The notes under the pieces are model-generated. The model saw only the letters and a program-made list of their open reading frames with translations, made no database searches and was not told the DNA's origin. From Candidatus Woesearchaeota archaeon (GTDB taxonomy: Archaea > Nanobdellota > Nanobdellia > Pacearchaeales > GW2011-AR1): a stretch of 26,036 bases of DNA. This document shows, in pieces, positions 1 to 13,131 of this stretch. Position 1 is the stretch's first letter, and each line of letters begins with the position of its first letter. A program made the position numbers and the translations under genes. Location of the stretch: positions 1 to 26,036 of the forward strand of contig CAZAZO010000002.1 of NCBI GenBank assembly GCA_964489675.1. Direction: 5' to 3'.

Positions 1-2
1 CT

Positions 3-449
3 ACAGCCACATGTGGTGAGGGGTACGGTTTGCCAATTTTTGAAGCAGCATATTCGGGCATGCCTGTTATAGCAACTGATTGGTCCGGTCATTTAGACTT
101 TTTAAGCGCTCCATATAAAGAAAATGGAAAAACAAAAGATAAGAAATTGTTTGCAAAGGTTAACTACACTTTAGCAGAGATTGATGATGCTGTTGTTTGG
201 GATGGTGTGTTGGTAAAGGGCAGTAAATGGGCATACGTTAACCCTGCTTCATACAAAACTCAGCTTCGCAAAGTTTACAAAAGTTATGGTATGTACAAAA
301 AATGGGCCACCGCCTTGCAAAAGCACATTCTAAAAACTCATAAAAAAGAAGATATAATTCAAAAGTTTGTGAACTCACTAGGTATTGAGCCTGAAACCCC
401 AGAAGTCATTGACTGGATGAGTAGTCAGCAAGAGATTGAACAACTCTAG
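3..449 (+). CDS. Glycosyltransferase family 4 (GT-B), C-terminal part; 5'-truncated by the window edge
   Basis: The frame is open from nt 3 and reads TATCGEGYGLPIFEAAYSGMPVIATDWSGHLDFL, containing the GT4 E-x7-E motif (EGYGLPIFE) followed by G-x-P-V-I-A-T. The track start at 30 (TTG) is internal. Confidence 0.85.
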   Translation, partial: TATCGEGYGLPIFEAAYSGMPVIATDWSGHLDFLSAPYKENGKTKDKKLFAKVNYTLAEIDDAVVWDGVLVKGSKWAYVNPASYKTQLRKVYKSYGMYKKWATALQKHILKTHKKEDIIQKFVNSLGIEPETPEVIDWMSSQQEIEQL

Positions 450-451
450 TA

Positions 452-2095
452 ATGAAAAATATAGTTTTTATATCAGATTTTTTTTTGAAAGATGGGGTAC
501 ACGGTGGTGCAGAACAATTTAATGAAAATCTGTTATCTTTGTTATCCCAAAAATATAAAATATCCAGACTCAATAGTCATAATGCCACTCCTGACATCAT
601 AGAGGCAGGCAAAGAATCTTTTTTTATAATTTCTAATTTCATGAATCTCTCTGAGGCTTGTAAGAAGCTTTTATTTACAAAAAAGTATATCATCCTTGAG
701 CATGACCATAAGTATATAACGAACAATGATCCTTCCAAATTCGTCAACATGATTGCACCTCAGAACAAGATATGGAATTTAGAATTTTTTCAAAAAGCTC
801 AAGCAGTACTTTGTCAGAGTAAAATACACGCCGAAGTCGCGCAGAAAAATCTATTAGTAAACAACATTATTAATCTTTCTTGTAATTTGTGGTCAGACGA
901 ACAATTGGAATTCTTATCTTCTTTTGTGGGCAAAGAAAAGGTGATAAAAAATTCCATTATAGATTCTAACAACAAAAACAAGGGTACCCCAAGCGCCATT
1001 AAATACTGTCAAGACAACAATATCGAATTCAACCGTATAGGTTGGCTAGAATATCCACAATTTCTAGAACAACTAGCGAAGACAGAGACATTAATATTTT
1101 TTCCACAATGGTTGGAATCATTTAACCGTTTAGTTGTCGAGGCTAAAATCTTGGGATGTAAAATAACAACGAATAAATTAGTGGGGGTAGCAAGTGAAGA
1201 ATGGTTCCGCAATGCAAAGCCAGAGGACATTATACCCATCCTCAAAGAGAAGAGAGAACACGTATTAAAAATATTTGAAACACTCATAGAAGAAAAAGAG
1301 CACAATTTATTAATTCCAGAAATTAAAATACCAAAAGTGTCCATTATAACCTCCTTGTATAAGGGTGGTAAATTTATTAAGAGATTTATGGAAAATATAA
1401 CATCACAGACGTGTTTTGATAAGTGTGAATTGATAATTCTAGACGCAAACTCACCGGACAAAGAATATGAGACAACTATTAAGGGTTACTTGGATGAATA
1501 TAACAACATAAAATACAAGAGACTCAAAGACCGAAAGTCTGTTCAAGAAACAATGAACTTGGGGCTAGGACTTGCAACCGGTGAGATATTAACCATAGCT
1601 AGTGTTGACGACTTTCGACACCCCGAACACATTCGGACACTATCTTCTGCATTGGTTGTGGACTCGACTGTAGATTTGGTGTACGCAGACTGTTATCAAT
1701 CATCAGAGTTAGCTGCTAAATTCGAAGAATGTGACAAAAACAACAAATATGAACATTCTATGTTTAAATTCACAAAAGAAAATATGATAAAATGTCTCCC
1801 GGGACCAATGCCGGTGTGGAGAAGGTCTGTACACACCAAAACTGGGAACTTTGACGAAAAATATAAATATGCAGGAGACTGGGATATGTGGCTAAGAATG
1901 GTCAGAGAGGGAAGCAAATTTAAAAAAATAGAGCAAGGTTTAGGAATTTATTATTTTAATCCCGAAGGCTTATCTACATCTGCTGATAACCACAGAGAAA
2001 AGTTTAAAGAGGAAAGAGAAGTATTTAACAAAAACAAGGATATTTTTGGAGACAGAATCACAAACATGTTTGAGGGTTATTTTAATGGAAGATAG
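452..2095 (+). CDS. Two-domain glycosyltransferase: N-terminal GT-B (GT4-like) fused to C-terminal GT2 (GT-A)
   Basis: N-half has DFFLKDGVHGGAE and FFPQWLESFNRLVVEAKILGC (E-x7-E). C-half has KVSIITSLYKGGKFI, LIILDANSPD, DLVYAD and AGDWDMWLR, all typical GT2 motifs. Confidence 0.8.
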   Translation: MKNIVFISDFFLKDGVHGGAEQFNENLLSLLSQKYKISRLNSHNATPDIIEAGKESFFIISNFMNLSEACKKLLFTKKYIILEHDHKYITNNDPSKFVNMIAPQNKIWNLEFFQKAQAVLCQSKIHAEVAQKNLLVNNIINLSCNLWSDEQLEFLSSFVGKEKVIKNSIIDSNNKNKGTPSAIKYCQDNNIEFNRIGWLEYPQFLEQLAKTETLIFFPQWLESFNRLVVEAKILGCKITTNKLVGVASEEWFRNAKPEDIIPILKEKREHVLKIFETLIEEKEHNLLIPEIKIPKVSIITSLYKGGKFIKRFMENITSQTCFDKCELIILDANSPDKEYETTIKGYLDEYNNIKYKRLKDRKSVQETMNLGLGLATGEILTIASVDDFRHPEHIRTLSSALVVDSTVDLVYADCYQSSELAAKFEECDKNNKYEHSMFKFTKENMIKCLPGPMPVWRRSVHTKTGNFDEKYKYAGDWDMWLRMVREGSKFKKIEQGLGIYYFNPEGLSTSADNHREKFKEEREVFNKNKDIFGDRITNMFEGYFNGR

Positions 2096-3110
2096 GAAAT
2101 ATTTAGTTATCGATTCAAGGCCATACGGCTTTTTCTCAATTTTTATGCACACTATAGACAACCTCAAGTGGGCCGATGACCATGGTTACACTCCAGTAGT
2201 CCGTTGGGGCCCGGGCAGAACAGATGTAAACAAGAATCGCCCCGGAGCCGAAAAGGCATCAAGGCTAGCAAACCCAGTCCACGTAGGCACAGAGCCAAAC
2301 TTTTCGGAATTGTCAGACGATTCTCTTAGAGAGGGGTGTTTATATCTGGACGCGTCCAGGTCTGGTGAGTCATCATATTCTTGTTGGGAACACTTCTTTG
2401 AACCTGTCTCTGAATATTCAATTGAACAAGCAATAAATTCAAAACATAAAGTTTCAGATATTTTTCAAGTTGGTTTTCACGATTTGGATGTTTCATCTCT
2501 GGAAAGGAAATTTTTAATATTTAATTTACATAGTTATACGCCTTTAAACCTATGGGTGTATTGTTATAATAAAATGCAGACACTTCAAAAGCACCGACAA
2601 AGGGTATTTTATTATATTAACAAATTTATCAAAGTGAAGCCGAATATTAAGCAGAAGGTGGATTCTTTCGTAGAGGAGCATTTTACAGAAAATGTTATAG
2701 GTGTACACATAAGAGGAACAGATAAGTCTTCAGAATCAACTATTGGTCAAAGACCTTTTATTTCTGTGGAGGACTATATTAGAGATACTGAAAAGGCCCT
2801 TGAGAGTAAACCAGGTGCGTCCATATTTATAGCTTCGGACAATAACGAGGCAATTGGGAAGATGTTTAATCGTTTTCCAAATAATAAAATTATTGTATAC
2901 AAGTGCACAAGAATGTCTTCATATTCTTCACAGACGCCAGTCCATCTTTCGGAGGCCGCTGGTCCTGCAATAGGCGAGGAGGCATTAATAGATTGTTTGC
3001 TATTGTCGAAATGCAACCATTTGGTATGCACCGACTCTAACTTGGCTGCAGCCGCACTATACTTTAATCCTAACAGTACATTGTCTTTTGTGAATTTGAA
3101 AGGAAATTAA
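2085..3110 (+). CDS. NodZ/GT23-like (fucosyltransferase-like) glycosyltransferase, paralog 1
   Basis: Motifs VIGVHIRGTDK, IFIASDNNEAI and EEALIDCLLLSKCNHLVCTDSN match the GDP-fucose-binding motifs of the NodZ/FUT8/O-fucosyltransferase superfamily. Start reassigned to ATG 2085 (SD-like GAGGGT at 2072-2077; aligns with the paralog N-terminus). Confidence 0.7.
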   Translation: MEDRKYLVIDSRPYGFFSIFMHTIDNLKWADDHGYTPVVRWGPGRTDVNKNRPGAEKASRLANPVHVGTEPNFSELSDDSLREGCLYLDASRSGESSYSCWEHFFEPVSEYSIEQAINSKHKVSDIFQVGFHDLDVSSLERKFLIFNLHSYTPLNLWVYCYNKMQTLQKHRQRVFYYINKFIKVKPNIKQKVDSFVEEHFTENVIGVHIRGTDKSSESTIGQRPFISVEDYIRDTEKALESKPGASIFIASDNNEAIGKMFNRFPNNKIIVYKCTRMSSYSSQTPVHLSEAAGPAIGEEALIDCLLLSKCNHLVCTDSNLAAAALYFNPNSTLSFVNLKGN

Positions 3111-3113
3111 AAC

Positions 3114-4151
3114 ATGGATAAGAAATTTTTAATAATAGACTCGCGACCGTATGGTTTATTTTCCATATTTCTACATACGGTAGATAATATCAAATGGGCA
3201 AAGGATAACGACTATATCCCAGTTGTACGTTGGGCCCCTGGTAGAAGAGACTCTAACTACGGAAGAAGGGGAACTATAGAATACAGGGACACTAAAAATG
3301 CAGGAGTTCTTGACAAGAACAACTTTTTAACAGAAGATGCACCCCCCTCATATGGGAACACACCCGGCCTTAAACACTGTCAATGCTTGTATTGGGCACC
3401 GGAGGGCCATCATGGTGAGAAAAACCCGTGGAGGTACTATTTTGAGCCTCTAAACGAGTATACTGTAGAGCAGGCAGAGCAGGCACCACATGATGTTGCC
3501 GATATATTTATGGTTGGAGAATTGGACGACGACTTAGACAACAAATTTTTAATAAAAAGTGTTCACCTTTACGAGCCCTTAATTCTTTGGGATATCCTGG
3601 GTACCGATAAGGAACAAGGCCACAGGCAAGAAGTGAACGATGTTATAAAAGAAAACATTAAAGTTAGAGAGGAAATTTCATTAAAAATAGACGATTTTTA
3701 TAAAAAGCATTTTTCACAAGATAAGAAAACTATAGCAGTACACGTCAGAGGTACAGATAAGAAATTAGAATATCCTCACAAGGCATTGCCAATAGAGGCT
3801 TATAAGATTGCAATACAGAACTACCTAGATAGTTCAGATGAAATCGTAGACTTATATATAGCCTCAGACAATAATGAGGCTATTGGAGAGATAATAGAAG
3901 ACTTTAGAGGTAAGGTTGGAAAAATTATTATATACCCATCTGTTCGAATGCCAAAGTACTTTTCAAAAGACCCAATATGTTTAACCTCTGCAACAGGTCC
4001 GAAACATGGAGAGGAAGTTTTGATAGAGACAATATTGCTTTCTAAGTGTTCGCATCTTATTTGTACAGATTCAAATGTGTCAGCCGGCGCCATGTATATA
4101 AATCCAAATATGTCTATAGACTATTTAAACAGGAAATATGGTTCAAGGTGA
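3114..4151 (+). CDS. NodZ/GT23-like (fucosyltransferase-like) glycosyltransferase, paralog 2
   Basis: Motifs IAVHVRGTDK, LYIASDNNEAI and EEVLIETILLSKCSHLICTDSN; clearly homologous to the upstream ORF along its length. Confidence 0.7.
   Translation: MDKKFLIIDSRPYGLFSIFLHTVDNIKWAKDNDYIPVVRWAPGRRDSNYGRRGTIEYRDTKNAGVLDKNNFLTEDAPPSYGNTPGLKHCQCLYWAPEGHHGEKNPWRYYFEPLNEYTVEQAEQAPHDVADIFMVGELDDDLDNKFLIKSVHLYEPLILWDILGTDKEQGHRQEVNDVIKENIKVREEISLKIDDFYKKHFSQDKKTIAVHVRGTDKKLEYPHKALPIEAYKIAIQNYLDSSDEIVDLYIASDNNEAIGEIIEDFRGKVGKIIIYPSVRMPKYFSKDPICLTSATGPKHGEEVLIETILLSKCSHLICTDSNVSAGAMYINPNMSIDYLNRKYGSR
4120..4127 (+). promoter_or_regulatory. Candidate internal ACTATTTA motif upstream of the transketolase-like genes
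   Basis: Exact ACTATTTA starting 28 nt before GTG 4148, with spacing similar to the 23201 and 23652 sites. It lies inside coding sequence (Asp-Tyr-Leu), so it could be chance. Confidence 0.25.
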
Positions 4152-4897
4152 GAGAGACAAAAAATATAAGAAAAGCAATACTTGAGATGTCTTTCAAATC
4201 GCAAGCAGGGCACATCCCATCAGCTATGTCTATAGTAGAGATATTATACTCTATTTATTCAAGGGTCAAGAAAGATGAAGATGTGTTTATTTTGAGCAAG
4301 GGACATGGTTGTCTTGCTCTATATGCTGTTCTGGTAGAAGTAGGGTTGCTTAATAGGGAAGAATTAGAAAGTTTTTGCAAATATGATAGTATTTTGGGAG
4401 GACACCCTCACAGGCAAAAACATAAGGAGTTCTACTGCTCAGCAGGCTCTCTTGGTCATGGCTTGCCTATGGCCGTTGGAGCGGCTTTGGCTAAGAAGAT
4501 AAAGGGTGAAAAAGGGATAGTATGCTGCTTGATTGGTGATGGGGAATCAAATGAGGGAACAGTCTGGGAGTCATTAATGTTGGCCAAAAACTTAAATTTG
4601 AATAACTTAATATGTATCATAGACAATAATAACTCTCAAACTAGATCAATGCCAGTCCACGCATTGGAAGAAAAAGTCAAGAGTTTTCAATGGCACACAA
4701 AAGTTGTAGATGGCCATAATGTAGAAAACATTACAGAAGCTTTATCTGAAGGCCTCTCCGCGCCACTATGTTTGATTTGTCAAACTACAAAAGGCAAGGG
4801 TATTTCAGAGATGGAGACAAACACATTTGCTTGGCATCATGGACCACCCAACAAAGAACAATATGATAGGTTTGTGAAAGAAGTGGAAAATGCGTAA
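4148..4897 (+). CDS. Transketolase-like protein, N-terminal ThDP-binding subunit
   Basis: Motifs GHIPSAMS, LSKGHG, GHP, GSLGHGLPMAVG, GDGESNEG...DNN (ThDP/Mg motif), DGHN, TTKGKG and WHH. Start reassigned to GTG 4148, which overlaps the upstream TGA and follows AGGA at 4131-4134. Confidence 0.9.
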   Translation: MRETKNIRKAILEMSFKSQAGHIPSAMSIVEILYSIYSRVKKDEDVFILSKGHGCLALYAVLVEVGLLNREELESFCKYDSILGGHPHRQKHKEFYCSAGSLGHGLPMAVGAALAKKIKGEKGIVCCLIGDGESNEGTVWESLMLAKNLNLNNLICIIDNNNSQTRSMPVHALEEKVKSFQWHTKVVDGHNVENITEALSEGLSAPLCLICQTTKGKGISEMETNTFAWHHGPPNKEQYDRFVKEVENA

Positions 4898-5777
4898 ACA
4901 ATTTGCAGATTTGATGATTTCAATGGCCGAAAGGGATGATAAGCTTGTACTTTTAATAGGGGACATTAGTCACCATCTATTGAGAGACTTTGAACAAAAA
5001 TTTCCCAATAGGTTTTACAACGCCGGTATATGTGAACAATCGATTGTTAGTATGGCAGCCGGCCTTGCCGCTGAGGGCTTAAGGCCAGTTGTACACACCA
5101 TTGCACCTTTTTGTGTAGAAAGAGCCTTTGAACAAATAAAAGTAGACTTGTGTTATCAAGATTTACCAGTGACAATTATTTCTGTAGGTTCGTCTTTTGA
5201 CTATGCTCACTTAGGATGTACTCACCACTGTTATGAAGATACATCAATTCTGAGAAGTTTACCTAATATAGATATTTTTGTTCCAGGTTCTTCGGAAGAA
5301 TTTAGAACTTTGTTTGAGGAAACTTGGCACGTTCAAAGGCCAAAGTATTTCAAATTATCAAAAGATGAACATGGTGTAGAAACCAGTGTTGAACCGTACA
5401 AGATGAGTGTTCTTAATAAGGGTGATAAGTCGACAGCTATTTTTGTTAATGGACATCTTTTAAGTGAAGTATATAAAATTGATGATATTGAACAATACAC
5501 TATTGTTTATAGCCCAACTATAGAGCCCATTGATGAACATTCTTTGAAAACAATACACTCCATCCTAAAAACTCACGAAAAAATAGTAACCATAGAAGAA
5601 AACTCGTCAATAGGAAGTTTCGCGGATAAGGTAACTGATATAGCATTTTCCAATAATACTCCTATTTTAAATAAGAAAATAGGTATCCCAAGAGAGTTTC
5701 TGACAAAATATGGAAAAGCATGTGACCATAGGGAGTCATTAGGTCTTGTTGCAAAAAGGATAAAAAATGAATTATAA
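4890..5777 (+). CDS. Transketolase-like protein, C-terminal (pyrimidine-binding plus C-terminal domain) subunit
   Basis: Motifs RFYNAGICEQSIVSMAAGLA, RAFEQIKVDL, GCTHHCYED and IVTIEENS; overlaps the N-subunit gene by 8 nt. Confidence 0.9.
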   Translation: MRKQFADLMISMAERDDKLVLLIGDISHHLLRDFEQKFPNRFYNAGICEQSIVSMAAGLAAEGLRPVVHTIAPFCVERAFEQIKVDLCYQDLPVTIISVGSSFDYAHLGCTHHCYEDTSILRSLPNIDIFVPGSSEEFRTLFEETWHVQRPKYFKLSKDEHGVETSVEPYKMSVLNKGDKSTAIFVNGHLLSEVYKIDDIEQYTIVYSPTIEPIDEHSLKTIHSILKTHEKIVTIEENSSIGSFADKVTDIAFSNNTPILNKKIGIPREFLTKYGKACDHRESLGLVAKRIKNEL

Positions 5778-6831
5778 CCATCATATTATTAGACAAGAAT
5801 GTCAAAGGTTGTTTGAAATAGACAAGTTCGAAGAGTTAAAGAACAAAACCGTATTTGTTGTAGGCGCAAACGGCTTAATAGGTAGTTTTTTGGCAGATTT
5901 TATGGTATTTTTAAACGAAAATGACTATAATATTAGCCTAATATTAAGCTCATATAGTGCCCCTGATAAGGCTGTTCGCATATTACACCTTCAAAACAGA
6001 GATGATGTAAGATACTTTTCATGGGATTGTTCAAAACCGCTACCTCAAAACGCTTTGAAAGAGGAAATCGATGTGACTTTTTTCTGTGCAGGGTATGGAC
6101 AGCCGTCTAAATTTCTCTCAAATAACATAAAGACTACACTGATAAATATTGTTGGTGCGAATAGTATTCTAGATAAACTATCCAGACAAGAAAAAGATAC
6201 AAAATTTACATTTCTAAGTACCAGTGAGATTTATGGAACACCTTCTGTGTATCCGACACCAGAGGAATATCCCTGTCAATTCGATTTAAGTAACAATAGG
6301 GTCGCATATATCCTATCAAAAGCAACAGCTGAAAACTTGTGCGTTCAATATAATAAATTAGAACATCTAGAAACAAAGATAGCTAGAATAGCTTTAACGT
6401 ATGGCCCCGGCACCATGCATAATGACTCTAGAGTCATGCAGGAATTTATTTTTAAGGCAGCTAAAAACGGGAATATATCAATGTTGGACTCAGGCTCCTC
6501 TATAAGGAACTATTTGTATTTAACAGACTCCGCAGAAGCGATCTTAAATGTGACACTTAGAGGTCAGAGTATAGTGTATAATATCGGAGGAGATTCTGAA
6601 GAGGTTAGTATCTATGGTTTAGCTAAACATATAGGCGCTTTGATGGGTACACCAGTTATAAAAGGTGAAGAAAAAAACAAAAATACAAAGTCAGCTCCAT
6701 TGAAAGTTGGCTTGTCAATGAAGAAATATAGGAAAGAATTCCCAAAGTATGGTAATAATATTATTGGCTTGAGTCAGGGAATAGATAGGGTACTAAAGTG
6801 GTACAGACTTATGGAGGTAGAAAATGAATAA
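5767..6831 (+). CDS. NAD-dependent epimerase/dehydratase (extended SDR), UDP-glucuronate decarboxylase (UXS)-like
   Basis: Rossmann motif VVGANGLIGS, STSEIYG, YxxxK (YILSK), ARIALTYGPG, and DSRVMQEFI...GSSIRNYLYLTD resembling the UXS pattern DGRVVSNFI...GSQTR. Exact substrate cannot be assigned. Confidence 0.8.
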   Translation: MNYNHHIIRQECQRLFEIDKFEELKNKTVFVVGANGLIGSFLADFMVFLNENDYNISLILSSYSAPDKAVRILHLQNRDDVRYFSWDCSKPLPQNALKEEIDVTFFCAGYGQPSKFLSNNIKTTLINIVGANSILDKLSRQEKDTKFTFLSTSEIYGTPSVYPTPEEYPCQFDLSNNRVAYILSKATAENLCVQYNKLEHLETKIARIALTYGPGTMHNDSRVMQEFIFKAAKNGNISMLDSGSSIRNYLYLTDSAEAILNVTLRGQSIVYNIGGDSEEVSIYGLAKHIGALMGTPVIKGEEKNKNTKSAPLKVGLSMKKYRKEFPKYGNNIIGLSQGIDRVLKWYRLMEVENE

Positions 6832-7741
6832 ACAAAAGTTAACAGTAAAAGACTTTGAAGAAGCGTGGGGAGAAAAGGTTTCAGATTTTGTCGCAGGAAA
6901 AATTTTAGAATATGACTTTGAATACTCGGAACTCGACCCAGAAACTAGAGAAAAATTGATATTAGAAACGTTAAATCATATAGACTCTGGTTTATATAAA
7001 GCCGGTCCTCACCGGTCAAAAGACTGGGTAAAAGGTTGGGCGGAAAACAGGGATACAAATTCTACAGATTTTTTAGTGCCAAGATACTTTGGAAAATTTC
7101 CACATGTAAGATGGAAGGGGGAACTTGTCAAAACTGAAAGTGAAAACTTTGAATATAGTTGTGCATCTGTATTGCAGTATCACCTATTTGAAAAGTATTT
7201 CAGCACCACGGATAATATTTATGAATTCGGTTGTGGAACTGGGCACAACTTATTGAGGGCCCATGAGGTCAATCCTGCAGCGACAATTCATGGTTTAGAC
7301 TGGGCAGAATCGTCTCAACATACCATTGAGCGCATTAACAAAAGTTTTAACAAAAACTTCAAGTCTAAGAAATTTGATTTTTTTAATGTTGACAAACAAT
7401 TTAAAATTGGCAAAAATTCTGGCGTTTATACTTTCGCAGCACTTGAACAAGTGGGGGAGAAACATACGGGCTTCATAGAATATTTAATATCCCAGAAGCC
7501 TTCTATATGTTTGCATATTGAACCAATATCTGAGTTATTAAAACCAAAAGAGTCATTACTGGACTTTTTAAGTGTTAAGTATTTTGAAGAAAGAAATTAT
7601 TTAAATGGCTTTTATAAAAACTTAAAAAATCTAGAAGATGATGGTATCATAGATATCATACACGCACAAAGAAGCAACATAGGAAGCTTCTACGTTGACG
7701 GGTATTCTGTAGTTGCTTGGAGGCCAAAATGCCACAGTTAG
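6824..7741 (+). CDS. Class I SAM-dependent methyltransferase
   Basis: Motif I IYEFGCGTGHNL, post-motif GLDWA and VYTFAALEQV. Strong SD GGAGGT upstream. Confidence 0.75.
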   Translation: MNKQKLTVKDFEEAWGEKVSDFVAGKILEYDFEYSELDPETREKLILETLNHIDSGLYKAGPHRSKDWVKGWAENRDTNSTDFLVPRYFGKFPHVRWKGELVKTESENFEYSCASVLQYHLFEKYFSTTDNIYEFGCGTGHNLLRAHEVNPAATIHGLDWAESSQHTIERINKSFNKNFKSKKFDFFNVDKQFKIGKNSGVYTFAALEQVGEKHTGFIEYLISQKPSICLHIEPISELLKPKESLLDFLSVKYFEERNYLNGFYKNLKNLEDDGIIDIIHAQRSNIGSFYVDGYSVVAWRPKCHS

Positions 7742-8157
7742 TTTATTCAAAACAAGATAAAGACATATTGTTGTTGGCAATAAATAGAAGAAACGAAATA
7801 TCTGAAAAAAGAGTAGATATTTGCCCCGAGGATCAATACTTGCAGATCTGCACAAAAGTTATGCCCGAAGGATTAACCTTCAAAGCACATAAGCATAACA
7901 AATTAGAGAGAAACACTGATTATACAAATGAAGCGTGGATAATCTTAGAGGGTTCTGTAGCTGCAACTTTTTGGGATATAGATGACGAGAAGATCTTGGA
8001 GACAACTTTAGAATCTGGTGACTGCGCAGTGGTATTCCGAGCTGGACACAGCTTTAAGGTTCTGAAAGAAGGCACTATCTTATATGAAGTAAAATCCGGA
8101 CCATATTATGGTACAGAAAAAGATAAGACTTTTCTGGAGGCCGACAATGATTTATGA
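7729..8157 (+). CDS. WbuC-like cupin-fold metalloprotein
   Basis: Cupin motifs FKAHKH...EAWIILEGS and LESGDCAVVFRAGHSFKV, plus YEVKSGPY. Start reassigned to ATG 7729 after GGAGG at 7719-7723. Confidence 0.7.
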   Translation: MPQLVYSKQDKDILLLAINRRNEISEKRVDICPEDQYLQICTKVMPEGLTFKAHKHNKLERNTDYTNEAWIILEGSVAATFWDIDDEKILETTLESGDCAVVFRAGHSFKVLKEGTILYEVKSGPYYGTEKDKTFLEADNDL

Positions 8158-8320
8158 ATTATGGGATATGGTTTCTCTAGGAGAAGGAGAATCACCCATA
8201 CCACTTACACTCCTAGACAAGAGTGAAAACTTTGAAAACATATATATTAAATTTAATAAAATTATAAAGCACAAGATGTGTGTTATTTTTGTAAGAACAA
8301 GGAACGAAAACAATGACTAA
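8147..8320 (+). CDS. Small hypothetical protein (57 aa)
   Basis: ATG 8147 follows GGAGG at 8136-8140, and the ORF overlaps both neighbours in the same style as the rest of the operon. No recognisable domain. Confidence 0.45.
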   Translation: MIYELWDMVSLGEGESPIPLTLLDKSENFENIYIKFNKIIKHKMCVIFVRTRNENND

Positions 8321-9296
8321 AAAGAGAGCCCTAATAACAGGCATTGGTGGACAAGATGGTAGCTACTTGGCAGAACACCTCTTAGAAAAAGGCTACGAAG
8401 TTCATGGCTTGATAAGGCGACATTCCGTCGCAGAAAATCAAGATAGTAGAATTACCAAATTTTCCAACCAAATAAAGACTTATTATGGAGATCTGTTAGA
8501 TGCCCCATCTTTAACAAGAATTTTTAATGAAAGTAAGCCAGATGAGATTTATAACCTTGCAGCAATGTCACATGTTAGGATAAGTTTCGATGTACCATCT
8601 TTCACTATTCAGACAAATGGTTTGGGTGTCTTAAATATGCTGGAAACATACCGAACTCTAGCACCTAATGCAAAATTTTATCAAGCTAGCTCATCAGAGA
8701 TGTTTGGAAATTCTGTAGATGAAGATGGTATACAAAGGCTTACTACACCTATGAACCCAGTTAGTCCTTATGGCTGCGCAAAGTTGTTGGGATACAATCT
8801 TGTGCGTCATTATCGTCATGCTTACAAGCTTCACGCATGTAACGGTATTCTTTTTAACCACGAGTCCCCACGCCGCGGAACGAATTTTGTGACAAACAAA
8901 GTGGTCAAAACAGCTGTAGAAATTAAATTAGGCTTAAAAGACAAATTAGAATTGGGAAATATGGACTCATTTAGAGATTGGGGACATTCAAAAGATTACG
9001 TTAGAGCGATGAATATGATAATCAATCACGAAACACCGGATGAGTTCATAGTAGCAACGGGACAAACACACTCAGTAAGAGACTTGTGTGATACAGTTTT
9101 TAAGAAGTTGGACTTAAACTATGAAGAATATGTAACACAAAACCCTAAGTTTATGAGACCAGAAGAATTGAAATACCTAAAGGGCGATGCATCTAAAGCA
9201 CAGAAGATCTTAGGATGGAAGCCGGAATATACTTTTGAAAGCATGTTAGAAGAAATGATAGAAAATTGGCAACAAAAATTAAAGGAGAAAACATGA
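8313..9296 (+). CDS. gmd: GDP-mannose 4,6-dehydratase
   Basis: Diagnostic motifs ALITGIGGQDGSYLAEHLLEKGYEVHGLIRR, YNLAAMSHVRISF, YQASSSEMFG, SPYGCAK, GILFNHESPRRG and LGNMDSFRDWGH. Confidence 0.95.
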   Translation: MTKKRALITGIGGQDGSYLAEHLLEKGYEVHGLIRRHSVAENQDSRITKFSNQIKTYYGDLLDAPSLTRIFNESKPDEIYNLAAMSHVRISFDVPSFTIQTNGLGVLNMLETYRTLAPNAKFYQASSSEMFGNSVDEDGIQRLTTPMNPVSPYGCAKLLGYNLVRHYRHAYKLHACNGILFNHESPRRGTNFVTNKVVKTAVEIKLGLKDKLELGNMDSFRDWGHSKDYVRAMNMIINHETPDEFIVATGQTHSVRDLCDTVFKKLDLNYEEYVTQNPKFMRPEELKYLKGDASKAQKILGWKPEYTFESMLEEMIENWQQKLKEKT

Positions 9297-9532
9297 GACT
9301 ATCAAACCAAGCAATGGGAGCCTTAATGATGGCGCTGCAAAAATCCCTATTAGAACAAACAGATATTGTACCTATTTTGGAATCATTTGAATTTACAAAA
9401 TCAAATGATACTAAGAGGTGGGGTTCCAAATCGGGGGAACTTGTTATAAAGAATCCGCCTTCTTTTAAGATAGGCAACGACCACTTTAATCACAACCCAG
9501 AAGAAAACAAAATTACAAGAGGCTCTGACTAA
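9293..9532 (+). CDS. Hypothetical protein (79 aa)
   Basis: ATG 9293 overlaps the gmd stop (ATGA) and follows AAGGAG. Reads MRLSNQAMGALMMALQKSLLEQTDIVPIL. Confidence 0.7.
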   Translation: MRLSNQAMGALMMALQKSLLEQTDIVPILESFEFTKSNDTKRWGSKSGELVIKNPPSFKIGNDHFNHNPEENKITRGSD

Positions 9533-9781
9533 ATGCCTGTATATATCTACAGCTGCAACAGTTGCAAGGAAGAATTTGAAGTAAGACACGGAATGTCTTT
9601 TAATGACCAGAAGTGTGTAATATGCAATAGTGCAGATGTGTTTAAGATACCGGCTTTAAGTATTGATCAGCACCGGCAGATACACTCCAACCGAGCCGGT
9701 AGAATTGTAGATAAATATATAAAAGAAACCAAAGAAACAATTGAGAAAGAAAAGATAGATCTCAGAAAGAGAGAATTGTAG
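9533..9781 (+). CDS. FmdB-like zinc-ribbon protein
   Basis: MPVYIYSCNSCKEEFEV...CVICNS has the MP-x-Y-x-Y-x-CxxC...CxxC signature. Confidence 0.8.
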   Translation: MPVYIYSCNSCKEEFEVRHGMSFNDQKCVICNSADVFKIPALSIDQHRQIHSNRAGRIVDKYIKETKETIEKEKIDLRKREL

Positions 9782-10074
9782 TGTGGGAAACATTTTTTAT
9801 TATAAGTTTTTTAGTTAATATATTTCTGCTCTTATATGCAAGGTGGTTAATAAAATCATATTCAGTGTTGATAGAAGATATATCTTCTATCAATGAGATG
9901 GTGCTTAAATTTACGGAACATGTAAAAAGTGTACATGAACTTGAGACATTTTATGGAGATGAGACTTTGAATTCTTTATTACAGCATGGAAGAGAATTGG
10001 TTGATAAAATAGGAAATTTGGATTTACTAACAGAAGATGAAGAAGATAATAAAGAAGAGACGCAAGAGAACTAA
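9781..10074 (+). CDS. Hypothetical protein with N-terminal transmembrane helix and acidic tail
   Basis: Hydrophobic N-terminus (FFIISFLVNIFLLLYARWLI), a helical or coiled middle and the acidic end TEDEEDNKEETQEN. GTG start overlaps the upstream TAG. Confidence 0.65.
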   Translation: MWETFFIISFLVNIFLLLYARWLIKSYSVLIEDISSINEMVLKFTEHVKSVHELETFYGDETLNSLLQHGRELVDKIGNLDLLTEDEEDNKEETQEN

Positions 10075-10744
10075 GAACAATTACTTCACAAAGGTACATG
10101 AACAGGCCATTGTGGAGTATGCGAATACTGGCTGTATAAAACAGAGGACAAAGTTATATGAGTCCTTAATCCAACCAGCATTTGAGGAGATGGTAAATAA
10201 AATAATTTTTACCTATAAGTTCAACAATCTGCCAAACATTGACCCTCTAAGAGAAGACTGTAAGATATGGTTAACAACTATATTGGATAAATACGACCCA
10301 AACAAGGGTTCAAAGGCTTTTTCTTATTTTTCGGTTGTGACAAAAAACTGGTTTATACATAAAGTAAAAGTTAATTCCAAAAGATTGAGAAGAGAAGTAT
10401 CATACGAAAATTTGGTAGAAACAGGCGGCTCAGATGTGTTGGGGACTTCTGATTCTGAAAGACAAGATTATCTCGAACAAAGAATAGAGATGGAATTTTG
10501 GAACTCACTGTTATTCCAGGTAGATAAGTGGGATACAGGAAATTTAAAACCTAATGAGAAAGCGGTATTGGAAGCAGTTAAAGTGTTGCTGAATAACATA
10601 GAGGATATAGAAATATTTAACAAAAAAGCAGTATACCTATATTTGAGAGAGCTTACAGGATTAAACACAAAGCAAGTCGTTAACAATTTGAACAAATTAA
10701 GAGAAAAGTATAGAATATTTAAATGTAAATGGGATAGAGAATAA
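10037..10744 (+). CDS. Phage-encoded RNA polymerase sigma factor (sigma-70 region 2 / T4 gp55-like late sigma)
   Basis: LDKYDPNKGSKAFSYFSVVTKNWF resembles sigma region 2.3 (FDPxKGxKFSTY) and is preceded by a region-2.2-like LREDCKIWL. A possible C-terminal HTH is present (YLYLRELTGLNTKQVVNNLNKL). Lacks region 1.1 and the length of a housekeeping sigma. Confidence 0.65.
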   Translation: MKKIIKKRRKRTKNNYFTKVHEQAIVEYANTGCIKQRTKLYESLIQPAFEEMVNKIIFTYKFNNLPNIDPLREDCKIWLTTILDKYDPNKGSKAFSYFSVVTKNWFIHKVKVNSKRLRREVSYENLVETGGSDVLGTSDSERQDYLEQRIEMEFWNSLLFQVDKWDTGNLKPNEKAVLEAVKVLLNNIEDIEIFNKKAVYLYLRELTGLNTKQVVNNLNKLREKYRIFKCKWDRE

Positions 10745-10749
10745 AAAGC

Positions 10750-10766
10750 GCAACTAGTCTATTTAT
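10750..10766 (+). promoter_or_regulatory. Candidate late-promoter motif (GCAACTAGT-CTATTTAT) directly after the sigma gene
   Basis: The 25-nt gap contains CTATTTAT (10759-10766), ending 3 nt before an ATG that has no SD. GCAACTA is also shared with the 23198 site. Confidence 0.35.
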
Positions 10767-10769
10767 GAT

Positions 10770-11069
10770 ATGAGTAAAAAAATAGAAAACTTCATAGAGA
10801 GAGCAAATCAAAATATCGTCGACGACCGCGCGGCAACTAAAACTTTGTTAATGACTATCATGAAATACATGCAAACAGGTGATGATAGACACAAGGAGGT
10901 CGGACTTATAGCAGCAAAATATTTAGAAACTCTACAGAGGTCAAATGAACAGCTAGTTAAACTTGCGTCTTTGATGCAAAAAAGTCAATCAGATGAAGCA
11001 GGAATATCCGATGAAGATAAACAGGAGTTATTTGACCTTATAAATCAGAAAGGCGAAAATGATGAATGA
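10770..11069 (+). CDS. Helical phage protein, possibly terminase small subunit-like
   Basis: Helical segment DRHKEVGLIAAKYLETLQRSNEQLVKL loosely resembles the T4 gp16-type R-x-x-E-V...N-x-x-L helix. The ORF itself is solid; the function is speculative. Confidence 0.4.
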   Translation: MSKKIENFIERANQNIVDDRAATKTLLMTIMKYMQTGDDRHKEVGLIAAKYLETLQRSNEQLVKLASLMQKSQSDEAGISDEDKQELFDLINQKGENDE

Positions 11070-11715
11070 TAACGCCAAAAATTTAGATGATATTGTTAGG
11101 AATATGGGCATCGCCGCGGCTCACTCTCAAACACCTAGTCAAAATCCCAATGACGACACCAGCGCATCCGGCAACAATTTTTTTGATTATTTGTTGAATT
11201 CTGTAGAATATTACGATTCTAAACTTCGAAGAAAATTCAAAGATTTAGAGTTTCCTGGTCTAATACTGCATACAAAATTACTTAAATCAAGGAAAGAATT
11301 GGAAAGTTTAACATGCAATGCTTTTGCTAATCAGATTGTAAAAAGCTCTACAAAGACTCATAAATATTGGGAAGTCCATGCTTATGTACAGGAAATTTCC
11401 GGACTCCTGCCACAGCCAACATTTTCGGATATGATGGGGTATGACGATGGTACTTTAGATAAATCTGGTAGAGATAGATATGAAACAATCGTCTCGCGTT
11501 TTACAAAATTCTACTGCTGCCGACGAAACGCGCCAAAGATTTTTGAATGTCACAGGGTATTGTTTCCGGATGAGAATTTCTTCTATTATGGTCTAATAGA
11601 AGAAAATAGTATATTACACAATTCTAGCGTATTGAAAAAAAATGAAAAGGCTATATTGGAAAAGCAAACCGGAGCCGGCAATAATGCATCCTATCTTGGC
11701 GGCATGATGAGTTAG
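11059..11715 (+). CDS. Hypothetical protein, possibly an OB-fold baseplate-hub/spike-associated subunit
   Basis: 218-aa ORF with an AAGG SD and alternating beta-like segments (GLILHTK, YWEVHAYVQEI, RVLFPDENFFYYGLI), directly upstream of the spike-like gene. Fold assignment is inference. Confidence 0.4.
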   Translation: MMNDNAKNLDDIVRNMGIAAAHSQTPSQNPNDDTSASGNNFFDYLLNSVEYYDSKLRRKFKDLEFPGLILHTKLLKSRKELESLTCNAFANQIVKSSTKTHKYWEVHAYVQEISGLLPQPTFSDMMGYDDGTLDKSGRDRYETIVSRFTKFYCCRRNAPKIFECHRVLFPDENFFYYGLIEENSILHNSSVLKKNEKAILEKQTGAGNNASYLGGMMS

Positions 11716-11743
11716 AACAGGGAAGTAAGTAAGGTAAAACATA

Positions 11744-13114
11744 ATGGGAAAACGTACTGTAAAGAAAGGCGATTATCTAATAAAAATTGCCAGAGAGGAA
11801 GGTGTCACGCTAAAAGAACTAATAGCTGCAAATCCCCAAATTTCAGATCCAAACCTAATACACCCTGGAGATTCAATAAATGTTCCATCTTCTGAAGTCC
11901 CATCCGCGACTACATCCGGAGACAATTATACTGACGAGAACTCTCGCGCGCTGTCCGGAATGCAATCACCATCCGCGGCCGAAGAGGCAGGCGAATCAGG
12001 TCCCACCGGTGGTGAGCCTGTGTCCGAACCACCAGAGCCCGGGCTAAAAAGATTCATAAAAGGGCACCATGGAAAATATCATAAAGAGCATGAAGAATTC
12101 ATTAGCGGTGATAACGGCCTGTCCGGCAGTATCCTATCCGAACCTGTACCTGAATTTTTCGCCCGACCGGGCGATGGAATACTTACTGCGACTGAATTTT
12201 CCCAAGGAGCTAGCGATAATAATACGATGATTATTCTGGGCAGAGATCGAACCGGACTAGGAGAGATCGACTCCGCGGACCCTAACTTGGTCAAGTCAGA
12301 CTCAGGATATTCCAGCTATATGGGCGCCGGAGCAATAGATATAGTTGTAGGAAGGTGCTCTCCTTTTCCTTTAAGTATGGAAGGTAAGACCTGGAGTCCG
12401 CTTTTTAATACTCAAAAGAAAATACCAGAACTGAGAATGCAAACGCTGGAAGGAATTGAGAATAACACCCCCTTCTTTACATTTCACCCTGGGTATGTAA
12501 TGGACGCAGCAAGAATTTACATAAGTCAAATGACAGATATAGATGAGAGCTTTAAGATACAAAAAAAATTATTCTTTGGTGGTTCAATAAAGCAAAAAAC
12601 AAATAAAAGAACACCATGTTCTGGAATTATGTTAAAGGCTGACAAGATAAGAATGCATTCAAGATCGGATGTAAAAATTGTAACAGGTGGTCCCCATGAG
12701 ACTGTAAACTCGCAGGGAAATGATATTACTGAGGTTGGTGGGATTCACTTGATGGCAGGAAATCAATCTTCAAACCAGCAGCCAATTCCACTCGGAGATA
12801 ACTTGGCAAGAGTTCTGGATCAGTTGGTTGATAAGGTTGATGATTTAGCTTCAATTGTGTTTTCGCTAGCACACAGTCAAATGAAATTTAATAATATACT
12901 GGGAACGCACTGCCACCAGTCGCCCATGTATGGTATCTCAACGACACCATCCCTAACAGCAGCACCAGCCTCAGTTGAAGCGGTGTTGAATCAATTTTCG
13001 AGAGTTACGAATCAGATCGTATATTTGCAAAGAAATTTAAGTGGCTTTAGGGGAAATTATTTAAGATATGGCTCGGGACACTATATAAACAGTAGTTACA
13101 ATACGACGAATTAA
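11744..13114 (+). CDS. LysM-domain protein fused to a baseplate central spike-like (gp5/gpV C-terminal-like) domain
   Basis: Residues 2-48 form a textbook LysM (TVKKGDYLIKIAREEGVTLKELIAANPQISDPNLIHPGDSINVP). A Ser/Glu/Pro linker follows, then short beta repeats (TMIILGRDR, AIDIVVGR, ARIYISQ, IMLKADKIRM, VKIVTG, GIHLMAG) and an HxH motif (HCH, nt 12908-12916). Located upstream of gp25- and gp6-like genes. LysM is certain; the spike call is contextual. Confidence 0.65.
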   Translation: MGKRTVKKGDYLIKIAREEGVTLKELIAANPQISDPNLIHPGDSINVPSSEVPSATTSGDNYTDENSRALSGMQSPSAAEEAGESGPTGGEPVSEPPEPGLKRFIKGHHGKYHKEHEEFISGDNGLSGSILSEPVPEFFARPGDGILTATEFSQGASDNNTMIILGRDRTGLGEIDSADPNLVKSDSGYSSYMGAGAIDIVVGRCSPFPLSMEGKTWSPLFNTQKKIPELRMQTLEGIENNTPFFTFHPGYVMDAARIYISQMTDIDESFKIQKKLFFGGSIKQKTNKRTPCSGIMLKADKIRMHSRSDVKIVTGGPHETVNSQGNDITEVGGIHLMAGNQSSNQQPIPLGDNLARVLDQLVDKVDDLASIVFSLAHSQMKFNNILGTHCHQSPMYGISTTPSLTAAPASVEAVLNQFSRVTNQIVYLQRNLSGFRGNYLRYGSGHYINSSYNTTN

Positions 13115-13131
13115 GAGACAGGTTTAAGAAA

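Follow-up and report, generated by a model that had tools for sequence, protein, structure and literature searches.

The window analysed here, a whole contig of 26,036 bp, carries one allele of a glycan-synthesis island that is fixed in position and variable in content across a large clade of uncultured marine myoviruses. An equivalent island, with other genes inside, occupies the same genome position in hundreds of related phages. This shared architecture is the main point added to the first-pass annotation, which had recognised in the window a co-oriented run of glycosyltransferase (GT) and nucleotide-sugar genes leading into a sigma factor gene and baseplate genes.

A position-fixed island with a swappable interior

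The contig contains a gp55-like sigma factor gene together with gp25-like and gp6-like baseplate wedge genes, and because of the two wedge genes it was assigned to a myovirus. The gp6-like protein has 342 relatives in IMG/VR, and related contigs reach 187-220 kb; genomes of the clade are about 190-220 kb long. The clade is without a cultured member: the best isolate matches to the gp6-like protein are 33% and 28% identical, and a nucleotide-level match to isolated marine T4-like cyanomyoviruses or pelagimyophages was not found. The sigma factor has at least 536 relatives in IMG/VR, and 10 of the 10 homologues tested matched phrog_234 (best 1.1e-6). These genes and their relatives bear out the earlier attribution of the contig to a phage. 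The features downstream of the island's enzyme genes are as follows.

9266-9532, + strand: orf88, conserved right border
9533-9781, + strand: Zn-ribbon protein, right border (Zn_ribbon_8, 4e-9)
9781-10074, + strand: small protein with one TM-like segment, right border
10037-10744, + strand: gp55-like late sigma factor (phrog_234 'late sigma transcription factor', 1.7e-4 for the window protein)
10759-10765, + strand: promoter-like motif CTATTTA, 11 nt upstream of orf99
23202-23208, + strand: promoter-like motif CTATTTA, 31 nt upstream of the gp25-like gene
23233-23625, + strand: gp25-like baseplate wedge gene (phrog_261, 5e-12; GPW_gp25)
23653-23659, + strand: promoter-like motif CTAATTA, 30 nt upstream of the gp6-like gene
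23683-25488, + strand: gp6-like baseplate wedge gene (phrog_219, 3e-19)

Both borders of the island are kept in the relatives. On the left, a PhoH/PIN ATPase and a PD-(D/E)XK nuclease precede two GT4 enzymes and, in most cases, a phage-specific 547-aa GT, which is a near-constant border gene; these left-border genes recur in each of the 49 loci that were anchored on the 547-aa GT, and three other contexts have them too. On the right stand orf88, the Zn-ribbon protein and the small TM protein, followed by the gp55-like sigma gene; orf88 is present in at least 81 related loci, always directly upstream of sigma. The order PhoH, cassette, sigma was recovered with the same cassette from eight independent assemblies of different samples by different pipelines (JGI 3300009128, NCBI GCA_001756985.1, ENA ERZ836958, and IMG/VR 3300021197, 3300030099, 3300032083, 3300031957 and 3300006810). 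Thus the cluster does keep its place in related phages, as had been suggested for checking, while its interior genes differ.

Between the borders lies a cassette of sugar-modifying genes that can be swapped. Across the clade, 654 such ORFs fall into 273 protein clusters, the commonest Pfam families being methyltransferases, GT2, GT1/4, transketolase halves, HAD hydrolases, hexapeptide acyltransferases, cytidylyltransferases and SDRs. Cassettes measure 4.0-9.5 kb in 20 closed loci and exceed 10 kb in at least 21 others, with lengths of 17.6 and 22.6 kb by contig coordinates. Cassettes have been replaced within the clade: five relatives (L085, L087 and L089-L091) have a sigma factor 79-84% identical to that of the window yet different cassettes, and three others (L082-L084) carry the window's cassette with a sigma factor merely 48-58% identical.

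Between the island and the baseplate genes lie the three small conserved ORFs, the sigma gene and two further ORFs, and then a LysM/gp5-like gene and a 3352-aa ORF. Clade-wide, 125 of 542 occurrences of the motif CTAWTTA stand 10-39 nt before an ORF start; a control motif does so in 12 of 573. The motif precedes 56 of 199 structural ORFs versus 1 of 583 island ORFs; inside the window's island there is none except one unconserved in-gene match (4121), and the nearest upstream copy lies before PhoH, about 3 kb ahead of the first GT4. Proximity to the baseplate genes, on which the first-pass annotation had drawn, carries little weight, because the island is part of a co-directional run that is headed by PhoH and the nuclease and ends before sigma.

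Enzymes encoded by the window's allele

All island genes between positions 3 and 9296 lie on the + strand and are tightly packed or overlapping.

3-449, + strand: second conserved GT4-type enzyme (GT4B), C-terminal 148 aa, cut by the contig end (weak GT1/GT4 Pfam matches, E ~1e-3)
452-2095, + strand: bifunctional 547-aa GT (Pfam GT2; GT-B fold by model)
2085-3110, + strand: GT23-like (FUT8/NodZ-type) putative GDP-sugar (fucosyl-type) transferase, copy 1 (FUT8_N_cat 54 bits, cut-off 27.6; NodZ 28.4 bits); start taken from the JGI gene call
3114-4151, + strand: GT23-like transferase, copy 2, tandem paralogue of copy 1 (41-45% identity)
4187-4897, + strand: ThDP-binding N-terminal half of a split transketolase/DXS-like enzyme (Transketolase_N 4.9e-28; NCBIfam transketolase 1e-55, partial length)
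4890-5777, + strand: pyrimidine-binding and C-terminal half of the split ThDP enzyme (Transket_pyr 3.3e-24; DXS/transketolase matches)
5767-6831, + strand: extended SDR of nucleotide-sugar epimerase, reductase or decarboxylase type (Pfam Epimerase 1.7e-30)
6824-7741, + strand: probable class I SAM-dependent methyltransferase (Methyltransf_31 26.2 bits, cut-off 27)
7717-8157, + strand: small WbuC-like cupin (TIGR04366 WbuC 5e-9, 36 bits, cut-off 42)
8313-9296, + strand: GDP-mannose 4,6-dehydratase, Gmd (Pfam 1e-115; TIGR01472 373 bits, cut-off 415)

Pfam, profile and structure comparisons recovered the five co-oriented GT domains described earlier: the GT4 C-terminal fragment, the GT-B and GT2 domains of the 547-aa protein, and the two GT23/NodZ-like proteins. 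The GT4 fragment is 36-48% identical to the C-terminus of relatives' proteins at the same position, which are 415-431 aa at full length. In the 547-aa GT (AF2 model pLDDT 93.5) an N-terminal GT-B domain (GT4-like, approximately residues 1-285) is followed by a C-terminal GT-A domain (GT2, approximately residues 295-547), the latter matching Glycos_transf_2 over residues 297-460 (E 2e-11). Pfam gave no match for the N-terminal 288 aa, whose model (pLDDT 93.6) adopts a GT-B fold resembling the GT4 enzymes BshA, PimA and HepE (Foldseek E 2e-7 to 1e-6, TM 0.56-0.66), so that the original label of GT4-like plus GT2 is right. The C-terminal domain is structurally similar to K4CP, SpsA, TarP and WrtF. 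Full-length homologues of the protein number at least 290 in metagenomes (44-64% identity); none was found among the isolated phages searched, or in 185,579 cellular species genomes by a pattern-limited search. Copy 2 of the GT23-like pair has no Pfam match by itself, and a profile built from both copies and their relatives matched NodZ (1e-7) and FUT8 (3e-7) in the PDB. The motifs HVRGTDK, SDNNEA and CTDSN are conserved, and relatives carry one or two copies.

The nucleotide-sugar set listed in the first-pass annotation is likewise present and co-oriented, with the methyltransferase and cupin scoring below curated cut-offs. The ORF of the ThDP N-terminal half opens at 4046 and has a likely ATG start at 4187; cellular homologues of the C-terminal half (~40% identical) always lie beside an N-terminal half, often near an SDR. 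The nearest PDB entries to the SDR are UDP-glucuronate decarboxylases (4e-27), and a score of 43 bits against a cut-off of 500 rules it out as a canonical GDP-fucose synthase. In L167/L168 the SDR and methyltransferase are fused into one 656-aa protein. The Pfam matches of the methyltransferase are weak, all slightly under the cut-offs, and its PDB profile matches are weak too; its SAM-binding motif I reads YEFGCGTG, and YEFGCGTGHN is invariant in 5 homologues. The cupin, for which a Pfam match was absent, probably starts at the ATG at 7729, and its HxH...E...H metal ligands (H58, H60, E72 and H111) do not vary among 6 homologues. By its profile matches the last enzyme is a genuine Gmd, since it matches PDB GMDs at ~1e-90 (7e-92 and below) versus 7e-39 for GDP-heptose dehydratase.

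The island enzymes are all predicted to be soluble. TM-like segments were not detected in the window's island proteins, the sole hydrophobic stretch over the cut-off being the N-terminal nucleotide-binding fold of the SDR, and among the island ORFs of relatives just 2 in one set of 654 and 1 in another of 448 were predicted to have two or more such segments. Initiating phosphoglycosyl transferases, flippases, polymerases, ligases, ABC exporters and Gtr-type membrane proteins were absent from these ~1,100 ORFs. The lack of a flippase, polymerase or exporter reported earlier thus holds in the window and clade-wide (3 of ~1,100 ORFs with at least two TM-like segments). The argument built on it, that missing exporters favour a protein-linked glycan, separates the hypotheses poorly, because soluble GTs could use host lipid-linked or lipid A-core intermediates and host export.

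The glycan and its acceptor

The enzyme families suggest a route to the glycan. Gmd would convert host GDP-mannose to GDP-4-keto-6-deoxymannose, which the SDR, WbuC-like cupin, methyltransferase and split ThDP enzyme would tailor, the part given to the ThDP pair being drawn by analogy. The product would be a GDP-6-deoxyhexose, reduced or epimerised, methylated and possibly two-carbon-branched, and both GT23-like transferases may use GDP-sugars of this tailored kind. The conserved GT4, GT4 and GT-B/GT-A enzymes would build a common core, with variable sugars added on top. In the least certain step, the acceptor would be the phage's own virion protein, glycosylated in the cytoplasm during assembly.

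We tentatively favour virion proteins as the acceptor (probability about 0.4) over remodelling of the host envelope and glycosylation of DNA. A phage-encoded acceptor is argued by the retention of the core GTs in phages whose gp6 and sigma proteins have drifted apart to 42-76% and 48-84% identity, respectively, and by the failure to find the 547-aa GT at full length in isolated phages or, within the limits of the pattern search, in cellular species genomes. A further argument is that, among solved structures, the one nearest to the first core GT4 is a chlorovirus enzyme, the NY-2A transferase B736L, a full-length match of low sequence similarity (E 1e-9). Furthermore, in every experimentally resolved case known to us, lytic viruses with several soluble GTs and their own NDP-sugar genes glycosylate the virion or DNA. 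Against virion proteins stand the absence of the baseplate-gene motif inside the island, apart from the match at 4121, and the use of the same enzyme families in O-antigen, LOS and capsule synthesis.

Those families, typical of O-antigen, LOS and capsule loci, would also be expected if the soluble GTs worked at the cytoplasmic face of the host membrane, modifying the host's lipid A-core or undecaprenyl-linked intermediates, and host machinery exported the altered LPS, LOS or capsule, blocking superinfection by competitors or keeping progeny off debris. We regard such envelope remodelling as rather doubtful. The prophage-encoded teichoic-acid glycosyltransferase TarP is among the structural neighbours of the GT-A domain; the island lies in a run with PhoH and the nuclease and is without the motif that precedes baseplate genes; and hypervariable content would fit hypervariable host surface glycans. 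However, the membrane components named above are missing from the ~1,100 island ORFs, the core GTs are conserved in very divergent phages that probably have different hosts, the pattern-limited search of 185,579 species genomes detected no full-length cellular homologue of the 547-aa core GT, and the regions examined showed neither an integrase nor any other lysogeny gene. We also know of no experimental demonstration of a lytic phage remodelling the host envelope in this way. Published work has read the glycan genes of pelagimyophages and cyanomyoviruses as host-surface modifiers (PMC7029224, PMC12801897).

An oligosaccharide placed on a modified base of the phage DNA, evading restriction and other nucleases, is quite unlikely; the variable cassettes would then reflect an arms race with modification-dependent defences. 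The first-pass annotation had not raised this reading. To our knowledge, GT23-type enzymes act solely on glycan or protein acceptors, and a chain of methylated deoxysugars built on DNA by six GT domains would be unprecedented. The similarity of the N-terminal GT-B domain to T4 alpha-GT is generic (TM 0.42, rank 8). A C5-cytosine methyltransferase, 5mYOX/TET or ThyS-like hydroxymethylase was not found within 10 kb of the core GT in the window and three annotated relatives, nor by a crude motif scan of 1,857 ORFs. On the other side, a DNA acceptor is compatible with all-soluble enzymes, and nucleic-acid enzymes (PhoH/PIN and the PD-(D/E)XK nuclease) adjoin the island. QueF and dGTP-diphosphohydrolase-like genes lie nearby in relatives, which indicates that DNA base modification exists in the clade. 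There is also precedent in phage GTs related to LPS/teichoic-acid enzymes that, with HAD and cytidylyltransferase genes, put hexose, HexNAc, heptose or Kdo on 5hmC (bioRxiv 10.1101/2023.12.21.572611).

That the DNA is not phage at all, but comes from a bacterial polysaccharide locus or from host and phage DNA wrongly assembled together, is hardly credible: the gene families are common in bacteria and the window's left end is a contig end, but the recurrence of one cassette in one order in eight independent assemblies effectively refutes a bacterial locus or chimera, related contigs extend to 187-220 kb, GC is uniform over the window (0.34-0.43 overall) with no step at the island border, the genes are tightly packed on one strand, and the window has zero tRNA genes.

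Relation to known systems

Virion glycosylation as modelled here would resemble that of mycobacteriophages and that of chloroviruses, in which a conserved glycan core carries strain-specific decorations, an arrangement suggested for the window's clade too. Chloroviruses (PBCV-1 GMD/GMER, A064R-type GTs) likewise encode Gmd, several soluble and partly multi-domain GTs and methyltransferases, without membrane machinery. Unlike the genes of the window, which form one bordered island, chlorovirus glycosylation genes are scattered; their host is eukaryotic, and their virion glycans were shown experimentally, whereas those of the window's phage are predicted from its genes. Mycobacteriophage glycosylation systems comprise two to four genes, without the nucleotide-sugar genes and cassette architecture found in the window's clade. 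Common to the two are soluble GTs of a tailed phage that, together with methyltransferases, would modify capsid and tail proteins in the cytoplasm (Freeman et al. 2023, cited in PMC12619734 and PMC12801897).

Bacterial O-antigen and capsule loci of the galF-gnd type share with the island conserved flanks, allelic and horizontally exchanged sugar/GT cassettes and the same enzyme families; unlike them, the island lacks Wzx, Wzy, Wzz, an ABC transporter and an initiating phosphoglycosyl transferase, and it sits in a phage genome. Phage DNA hypermodification clusters also employ GT-A/GT-B enzymes related to LPS/teichoic-acid enzymes, in some cases accompanied by sugar-activation genes and in some located close to structural genes, but their defining mark is a neighbouring C5-methyltransferase with 5mYOX, or else a ThyS-like gene (bioRxiv 10.1101/2023.12.21.572611), none of which was found in the regions scanned here.

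Glycan gene sets have already been described in large marine myoviruses: P-SSM2, S-SCSM1, S-SCSM2R and S-CAM7 carry LPS-like/cell-wall glycan sets with many GT and nucleotide-sugar genes in hypervariable regions (PMC12801897, PMC7029224). As in the window, the function of such genes in cyanomyoviruses and pelagimyophages is putative and read from genes. Gmd occurs in 57 Synechococcus and 4 Prochlorococcus phage records (46-48% identity), whereas for the 547-aa GT, the GT23 pair and the split ThDP enzyme, isolated phages yielded only a 28% partial match to the S-SRM01 fucosyltransferase. The window belongs to a separate lineage (gp6 28-33% identical to any isolate, with no nucleotide match), and the fixed island position and conserved border core GTs are features of its clade. 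If virion proteins are indeed the acceptor, cassette swapping at this position would yield virion 'glycotypes'.

Phage context and gene content of the island

The island, a run of sugar genes at a fixed genome position of which window positions 3–9296 are one allele, is followed by genes for a gp55-like sigma factor, a LysM/gp5-like protein, an ORF of 3352 aa, and gp25-like and gp6-like baseplate wedge proteins. All ten sigma homologues tested matched phrog_234, and a profile search with the sigma factor found no match in the PDB. IMG/VR contains at least 536 relatives of the sigma factor and 342 confirmed relatives of the gp6-like protein, the latter on contigs of up to 203 kb; the gp6-like protein of the window itself has no second record elsewhere. 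The first-pass annotation had taken the DNA to be phage, and this is borne out: the flanks are phage genes in every assembly, not those of a bacterial chromosome. A host-phage chimera was rejected, since the same PhoH-cassette-sigma order occurs in eight independent assemblies. The window is the entire contig, and the sole contig found to encode exactly matching proteins is a 4.1-kb fragment of the window. Searching 50,697 phage records with the island by megablast gave zero matches. The best gp6 matches among isolates were Microcystis phage Mel-JY01 (33%) and Flavobacterium phage immuto (28%); Mel-JY01, the closest isolate, was discarded as a carrier because a comparable island is absent upstream of its baseplate genes.

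All substantial ORFs in the window lie on the + strand, and GC content ranges from 0.34 to 0.43 with no step at the island border. Within 3–9296 genes lie end to end or share a few bases with their neighbours, the sole gap being 155 nt in front of Gmd.

Features of the island, its right border and genes further downstream
3–449, +, C-terminal fragment of the GT4 glycosyltransferase GT4B (the window starts inside this gene)
452–2095, +, 547-aa glycosyltransferase
2085–3110, +, GT23-like copy 1
3114–4151, +, GT23-like copy 2
4187–4897 and 4890–5777, +, two halves of a ThDP enzyme (Pfam, NCBIfam, PDB)
5767–6831, +, SDR (Pfam, NCBIfam, PDB)
6824–7741, +, probable methyltransferase (near-threshold matches plus SAM motif)
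7717–8157, +, small WbuC-like cupin (below curated cut-off)
8313–9296, +, Gmd (Pfam, NCBIfam, PDB)
9266–10074, right-border ORFs, always between island and sigma: 88-aa protein (orf88), 82-aa Zn-ribbon protein, 97-aa protein with one TM-like segment
11744–13114, +, gp5-like protein
13132–23190, +, 3352-aa ORF

The earlier gene inventory of 3–9296 was correct, the listed genes having family, profile and structure matches. Judged by sequence similarity, the family assignments of Gmd, the GT2 domain, GT23 copy 1, the ThDP halves and the SDR are firm. A further candidate, the 70-aa orf70 (8108–8320), lacks homologues in all related loci and probably does not represent a gene. The AT-rich segment 8158–8312, located 5' of Gmd, is the only sizable non-coding gap of the island and is a possible internal regulatory element.

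The gp5-like protein starts with LysM, followed by a Ser/Thr/Pro/Glu-rich linker (residues ∼50–100), and its relatives conserve only the part after residue ∼120. The 3352-aa ORF, situated between the gp5-like and gp25-like genes, has no Pfam match, and just 24 related loci yielded a homologue. From sigma to gp6 the window measures 13.6 kb, versus ∼9–10 kb in many relatives, which points to a 3352-aa protein that is highly variable in size or identity across the clade. Most ORFs downstream of gp6 exceed 1,500 aa.

Glycosyltransferases and the proposed sugar pathway

The full island contains six glycosyltransferase (GT) domains. GT23-like copy 1 scored 54 bits against FUT8_N_cat (cut-off 27.6) and 28.4 against NodZ (cut-off 28.3) in Pfam. 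Copy 2, a tandem paralogue with 41–45% identity to copy 1, had zero family score by itself, and a joint profile of both copies matched NodZ at 1e-7 and FUT8 at 3e-7. Their conserved motif HVRGTDK has Gly in place of the second Arg of the HxRRxD type. These matches place the proteins in GT23 (FUT8/NodZ-type) as putative transferases.

No sequence-family match was obtained for the N-terminal 288 residues of the 547-aa protein, which are modeled as a GT-B fold (pLDDT 93.6) like that of the GT4 enzymes BshA, PimA, and HepE. The C-terminal half resembles SpsA, K4CP, TarP, and WrtF in its AF2 model (pLDDT 93.5). The single chain is therefore predicted to contain two separate GT folds, a GT4-like GT-B and a GT2 GT-A. 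At least 290 full-length metagenomic homologues were found, on contigs of up to 220 kb. The solved structure closest to GT4A, the other conserved GT4 enzyme of the left border, is the chlorovirus transferase B736L, and multi-domain GTs are present in many uncultured phages and giant viruses.

Gmd matches PF16363 over its full length (387 bits). Its PDB matches to GMDs (7e-92 to 4e-84) are far better than that to GDP-heptose dehydratase (7e-39), and it scores 373 bits against the NCBIfam equivalog TIGR01472, slightly below the cut-off of 415; on this similarity it is a member of the Gmd family, with genuine GMDs closer to it than the related dehydratases are. Cyanophages commonly encode Gmd (84 records). 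Within the phage collection the nearest Gmd, at 65.7% identity, is encoded by LR756511.1 (115913–116881), a 595-kb uncultured phage record that is not a cyanophage.

The HxH...E...H ligands of the cupin are invariant, as is the SAM motif of the methyltransferase, whose family matches are near threshold. The SDR is not a canonical GDP-fucose synthase, which argues against plain fucose as the sugar. A close variant of the window cassette (L167/L168, 14288–16258) encodes the SDR and methyltransferase as a single 656-aa fusion protein, arguing that both act on one substrate; this variant has a single GT23 gene and, 3' of Gmd, an additional TylF-type methyltransferase. Cellular homologues of the ThDP pair, a split transketolase/DXS-like enzyme, are only ∼40% identical and spread over many phyla, and the remainder of the window cassette is absent beside all of them, so neither the host nor a cassette donor can be named. 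In three Lentisphaeria MAGs (L223, L224, and L228) the ThDP pair is directly followed by a homologue of the window methyltransferase (26–27% identity), an arrangement that suggests a recurring ThDP-methyltransferase sugar-tailoring module in some cellular genomes. Literature searches on transketolase-like enzymes in sugar clusters gave nothing useful.

Taken together, these genes constitute a soluble enzyme set for a GDP-linked deoxysugar. As judged from its family, Gmd would convert host GDP-mannose to GDP-4-keto-6-deoxymannose, and the SDR, cupin, and methyltransferase families would be expected to reduce or epimerise and to methylate this product. E1- and transketolase-like enzymes operate in branched-sugar pathways, and by analogy the split ThDP enzyme may add a two-carbon unit. 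The tailored sugar would then be transferred by the GT23-like enzymes, whose family uses GDP-fucose, onto a common glycan core that may be built by the conserved GT4, GT4, and GT-B/GT-A set.

Borders, cassettes and transcription signals in related phages

Approximately 130 related loci were collected using two anchors, the sigma-factor alignment and the 547-aa GT alignment; single-protein anchors were weaker, the gp5-like protein retrieving one relative and the N-terminus of the giant ORF zero. The island has a constant left border (PhoH/PIN ATPase, small ORFs, PD-(D/E)XK nuclease, GT4A, GT4B, and the 547-aa GT) and a constant right border (orf88, the Zn-ribbon protein, and the small TM protein, then sigma). 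Of the 51 sigma-anchored loci with a full 10-kb flank, only one to three show the left border, and one close relative, L089, has both GT4 genes and no 547-aa GT. Left flanks of some relatives (e.g., L169, 2410–2889) carry genes for QueF-like, SpoU methylase, and dGTP-diphosphohydrolase-like proteins a few kb 5' of PhoH, a gene content that hints at 7-deazaguanine-type DNA modification in the clade.

The interior is highly diverse, with the 654 ORFs upstream of orf88 falling into 273 clusters. Sugar-tailoring families predominate in a Pfam census of 150 cluster representatives, which includes several types of methyltransferases (among them TylF, FkbM, and C-methyltransferases), GT2, GT1/4, transketolase and E1 halves, HAD hydrolases, hexapeptide acyltransferases, cytidylyltransferases, GFO/IDH/MocA oxidoreductases, and SDRs; annotated relatives add B12-radical SAM enzymes and UDP-glucose dehydrogenase. 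The cassette, measured from the end of the 547-aa GT to orf88, is 4.0–9.5 kb long in 20 loci and >10 kb in at least 21. In two phages it spans 17.6 and 22.6 kb by contig coordinates, and in the latter the stretch between GT4A and sigma accounts for roughly 28 kb of a 201-kb contig. That the island takes up as much as ∼14% of a 200-kb genome in some relatives clearly implies strong selection.

Comparison of sigma factors with cassettes indicates that cassettes are replaced and not only inherited. Five loci (L085, L087, L089, L090, and L091) have sigma factors 79–84% identical to that of the window and different cassettes; that of L085 encodes a HAD phosphatase, a nucleotidyltransferase-isomerase fusion, a WavE-like protein, another ThDP pair, and a different dehydratase. 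Conversely, L082–L084 have sigma factors only 48–58% identical, yet carry the window's cassette at 43–79% protein identity. The GT23 gene is present in one or two copies across variants. The JGI metagenome 3300009128 contains both part of the window (1–4112) and a different variant, L183 (IMGVR_UViG_3300009128_001063), in which the 547-aa GT is 46% identical and none of the window's cassette genes is present.

Copies of the T4 late promoter TATAAATA show no enrichment (5 found versus 2.9 expected). Of 542 occurrences of a different, clade-specific promoter-like motif, CTAWTTA, 125 lie 10–39 nt 5' of an ORF start, versus 12 of 573 for a control motif. Copies at 10759, 23202, and 23653 in the window precede orf99, gp25, and gp6, respectively; one at 4121 was rejected as a promoter, being located inside coding sequence (DYLN) and not conserved in L082–L084. 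The motif precedes 56 of 199 ORFs from gp25 onward versus 1 of 583 in the island. In most loci the nearest copy 5' of the island stands 26–47 nt before PhoH, and no + strand terminator is predicted in window 1–13500, making read-through of the island from a PhoH promoter possible. The sigma gene is part of the same run as the island.

The acceptor of the glycan and its significance

No TM-like segments were found in the island proteins of the window; only one hydrophobic stretch exceeded the cut-off, and this is the N-terminal nucleotide-binding (Rossmann) fold of the SDR. Among island ORFs of relatives, 2 of 654 and 1 of 448 have two or more TM-like segments; these comprise one left-flank fatty-acid hydroxylase and otherwise short ORFs, with no transporter among them. 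The initial remark that flippase, polymerase, and exporter genes are missing thus holds, and the TM scan of island ORFs extends it to the whole clade. The island has neither the initiating phosphoglycosyl transferase with flippase/polymerase or ABC exporter of a Wzx/Wzy- or ABC-dependent O-antigen/capsule locus nor the membrane proteins (GtrA, GtrB, and integral-membrane Gtr) of a serotype-converting cassette of temperate phages, and integrase genes are missing from the window and from the annotated flanks (10 kb per side). The absence of export genes does not single out an acceptor, as soluble GTs could also use host lipid-linked intermediates at the inner face of the membrane.

We favour virion proteins of the phage as the acceptor, with a probability of about 0.4. 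The GTs are soluble and phage-encoded, as in virion protein glycosylation systems. Four considerations argue for this reading: the core GTs are kept across phages that are only 42–76% identical in gp6; the full-length 547-aa GT was found neither in 185,579 cellular species genomes (in a pattern-limited search) nor in isolated phages; the structure closest to GT4A is from a chlorovirus; and, to our knowledge, the proven cases among lytic viruses with several soluble GTs and their own sugar-nucleotide genes are of virion or DNA glycosylation.

Remodelling of the host envelope by the island enzymes fits the enzyme families and has been the published interpretation in cyanomyoviruses and pelagimyophages (PMC12801897, PMC7029224); we consider it rather unlikely here. 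Glycosylation of DNA is improbable: soluble enzymes and the nuclease and PhoH neighbours would suit it, but its defining partner, a C5-cytosine methyltransferase with 5mYOX/TET or a ThyS-like gene, is absent from the 10 kb flanking the core GT on each side, in the window and three annotated relatives (∼190-kb genomes), and a crude motif scan of 1,857 ORFs for C5-methyltransferase, 5mYOX/TET, and ThyS-like genes was likewise negative.

With virion proteins as the acceptor, the clade, an abundant group of uncultured marine myoviruses, might display virion glycotypes. In this tentative model the conserved GTs would lay a common core on virion proteins, and recombination between the fixed flanks would swap cassettes of 4 to >22 kb, thereby changing the outer sugars.

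Large GT sets of marine myoviruses have already been published (PMC12801897, PMC7029224). Like the glycan sets of T4-like cyanomyoviruses and pelagimyophages, the present one places GT and NDP-sugar genes in a hypervariable part of the genome of a large marine myovirus; this phage, though, does not belong to those lineages, having no close core-gene similarity to their isolates (megablast, gp6). As far as the literature shows, three features are new: a conserved, bordered core with a swappable cassette across a large uncultured clade, a phage-specific GT-B/GT-A transferase, and the GT23 pair with a split ThDP enzyme in a phage.

The fixed locus, few conserved core transferases, and many natural cassette alleles make the clade a clean test case. 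Glycan gene sets of marine phages have been listed for twenty years. The cassettes also represent a pool of unusual sugar-tailoring enzymes, including split ThDP enzymes, B12-radical SAM enzymes, and C- and O-methyltransferases. If the host envelope is the target, this would amount to large-scale alteration of host surface glycans by a lytic phage. If the virion is the target, the sugar coats of ocean phage particles would vary, with consequences for adsorption, grazing, particle attachment, and defence evasion, and virion glycotypes, if real, would be a viral counterpart of bacterial O-antigen serotypes, their diversity kept by selection.
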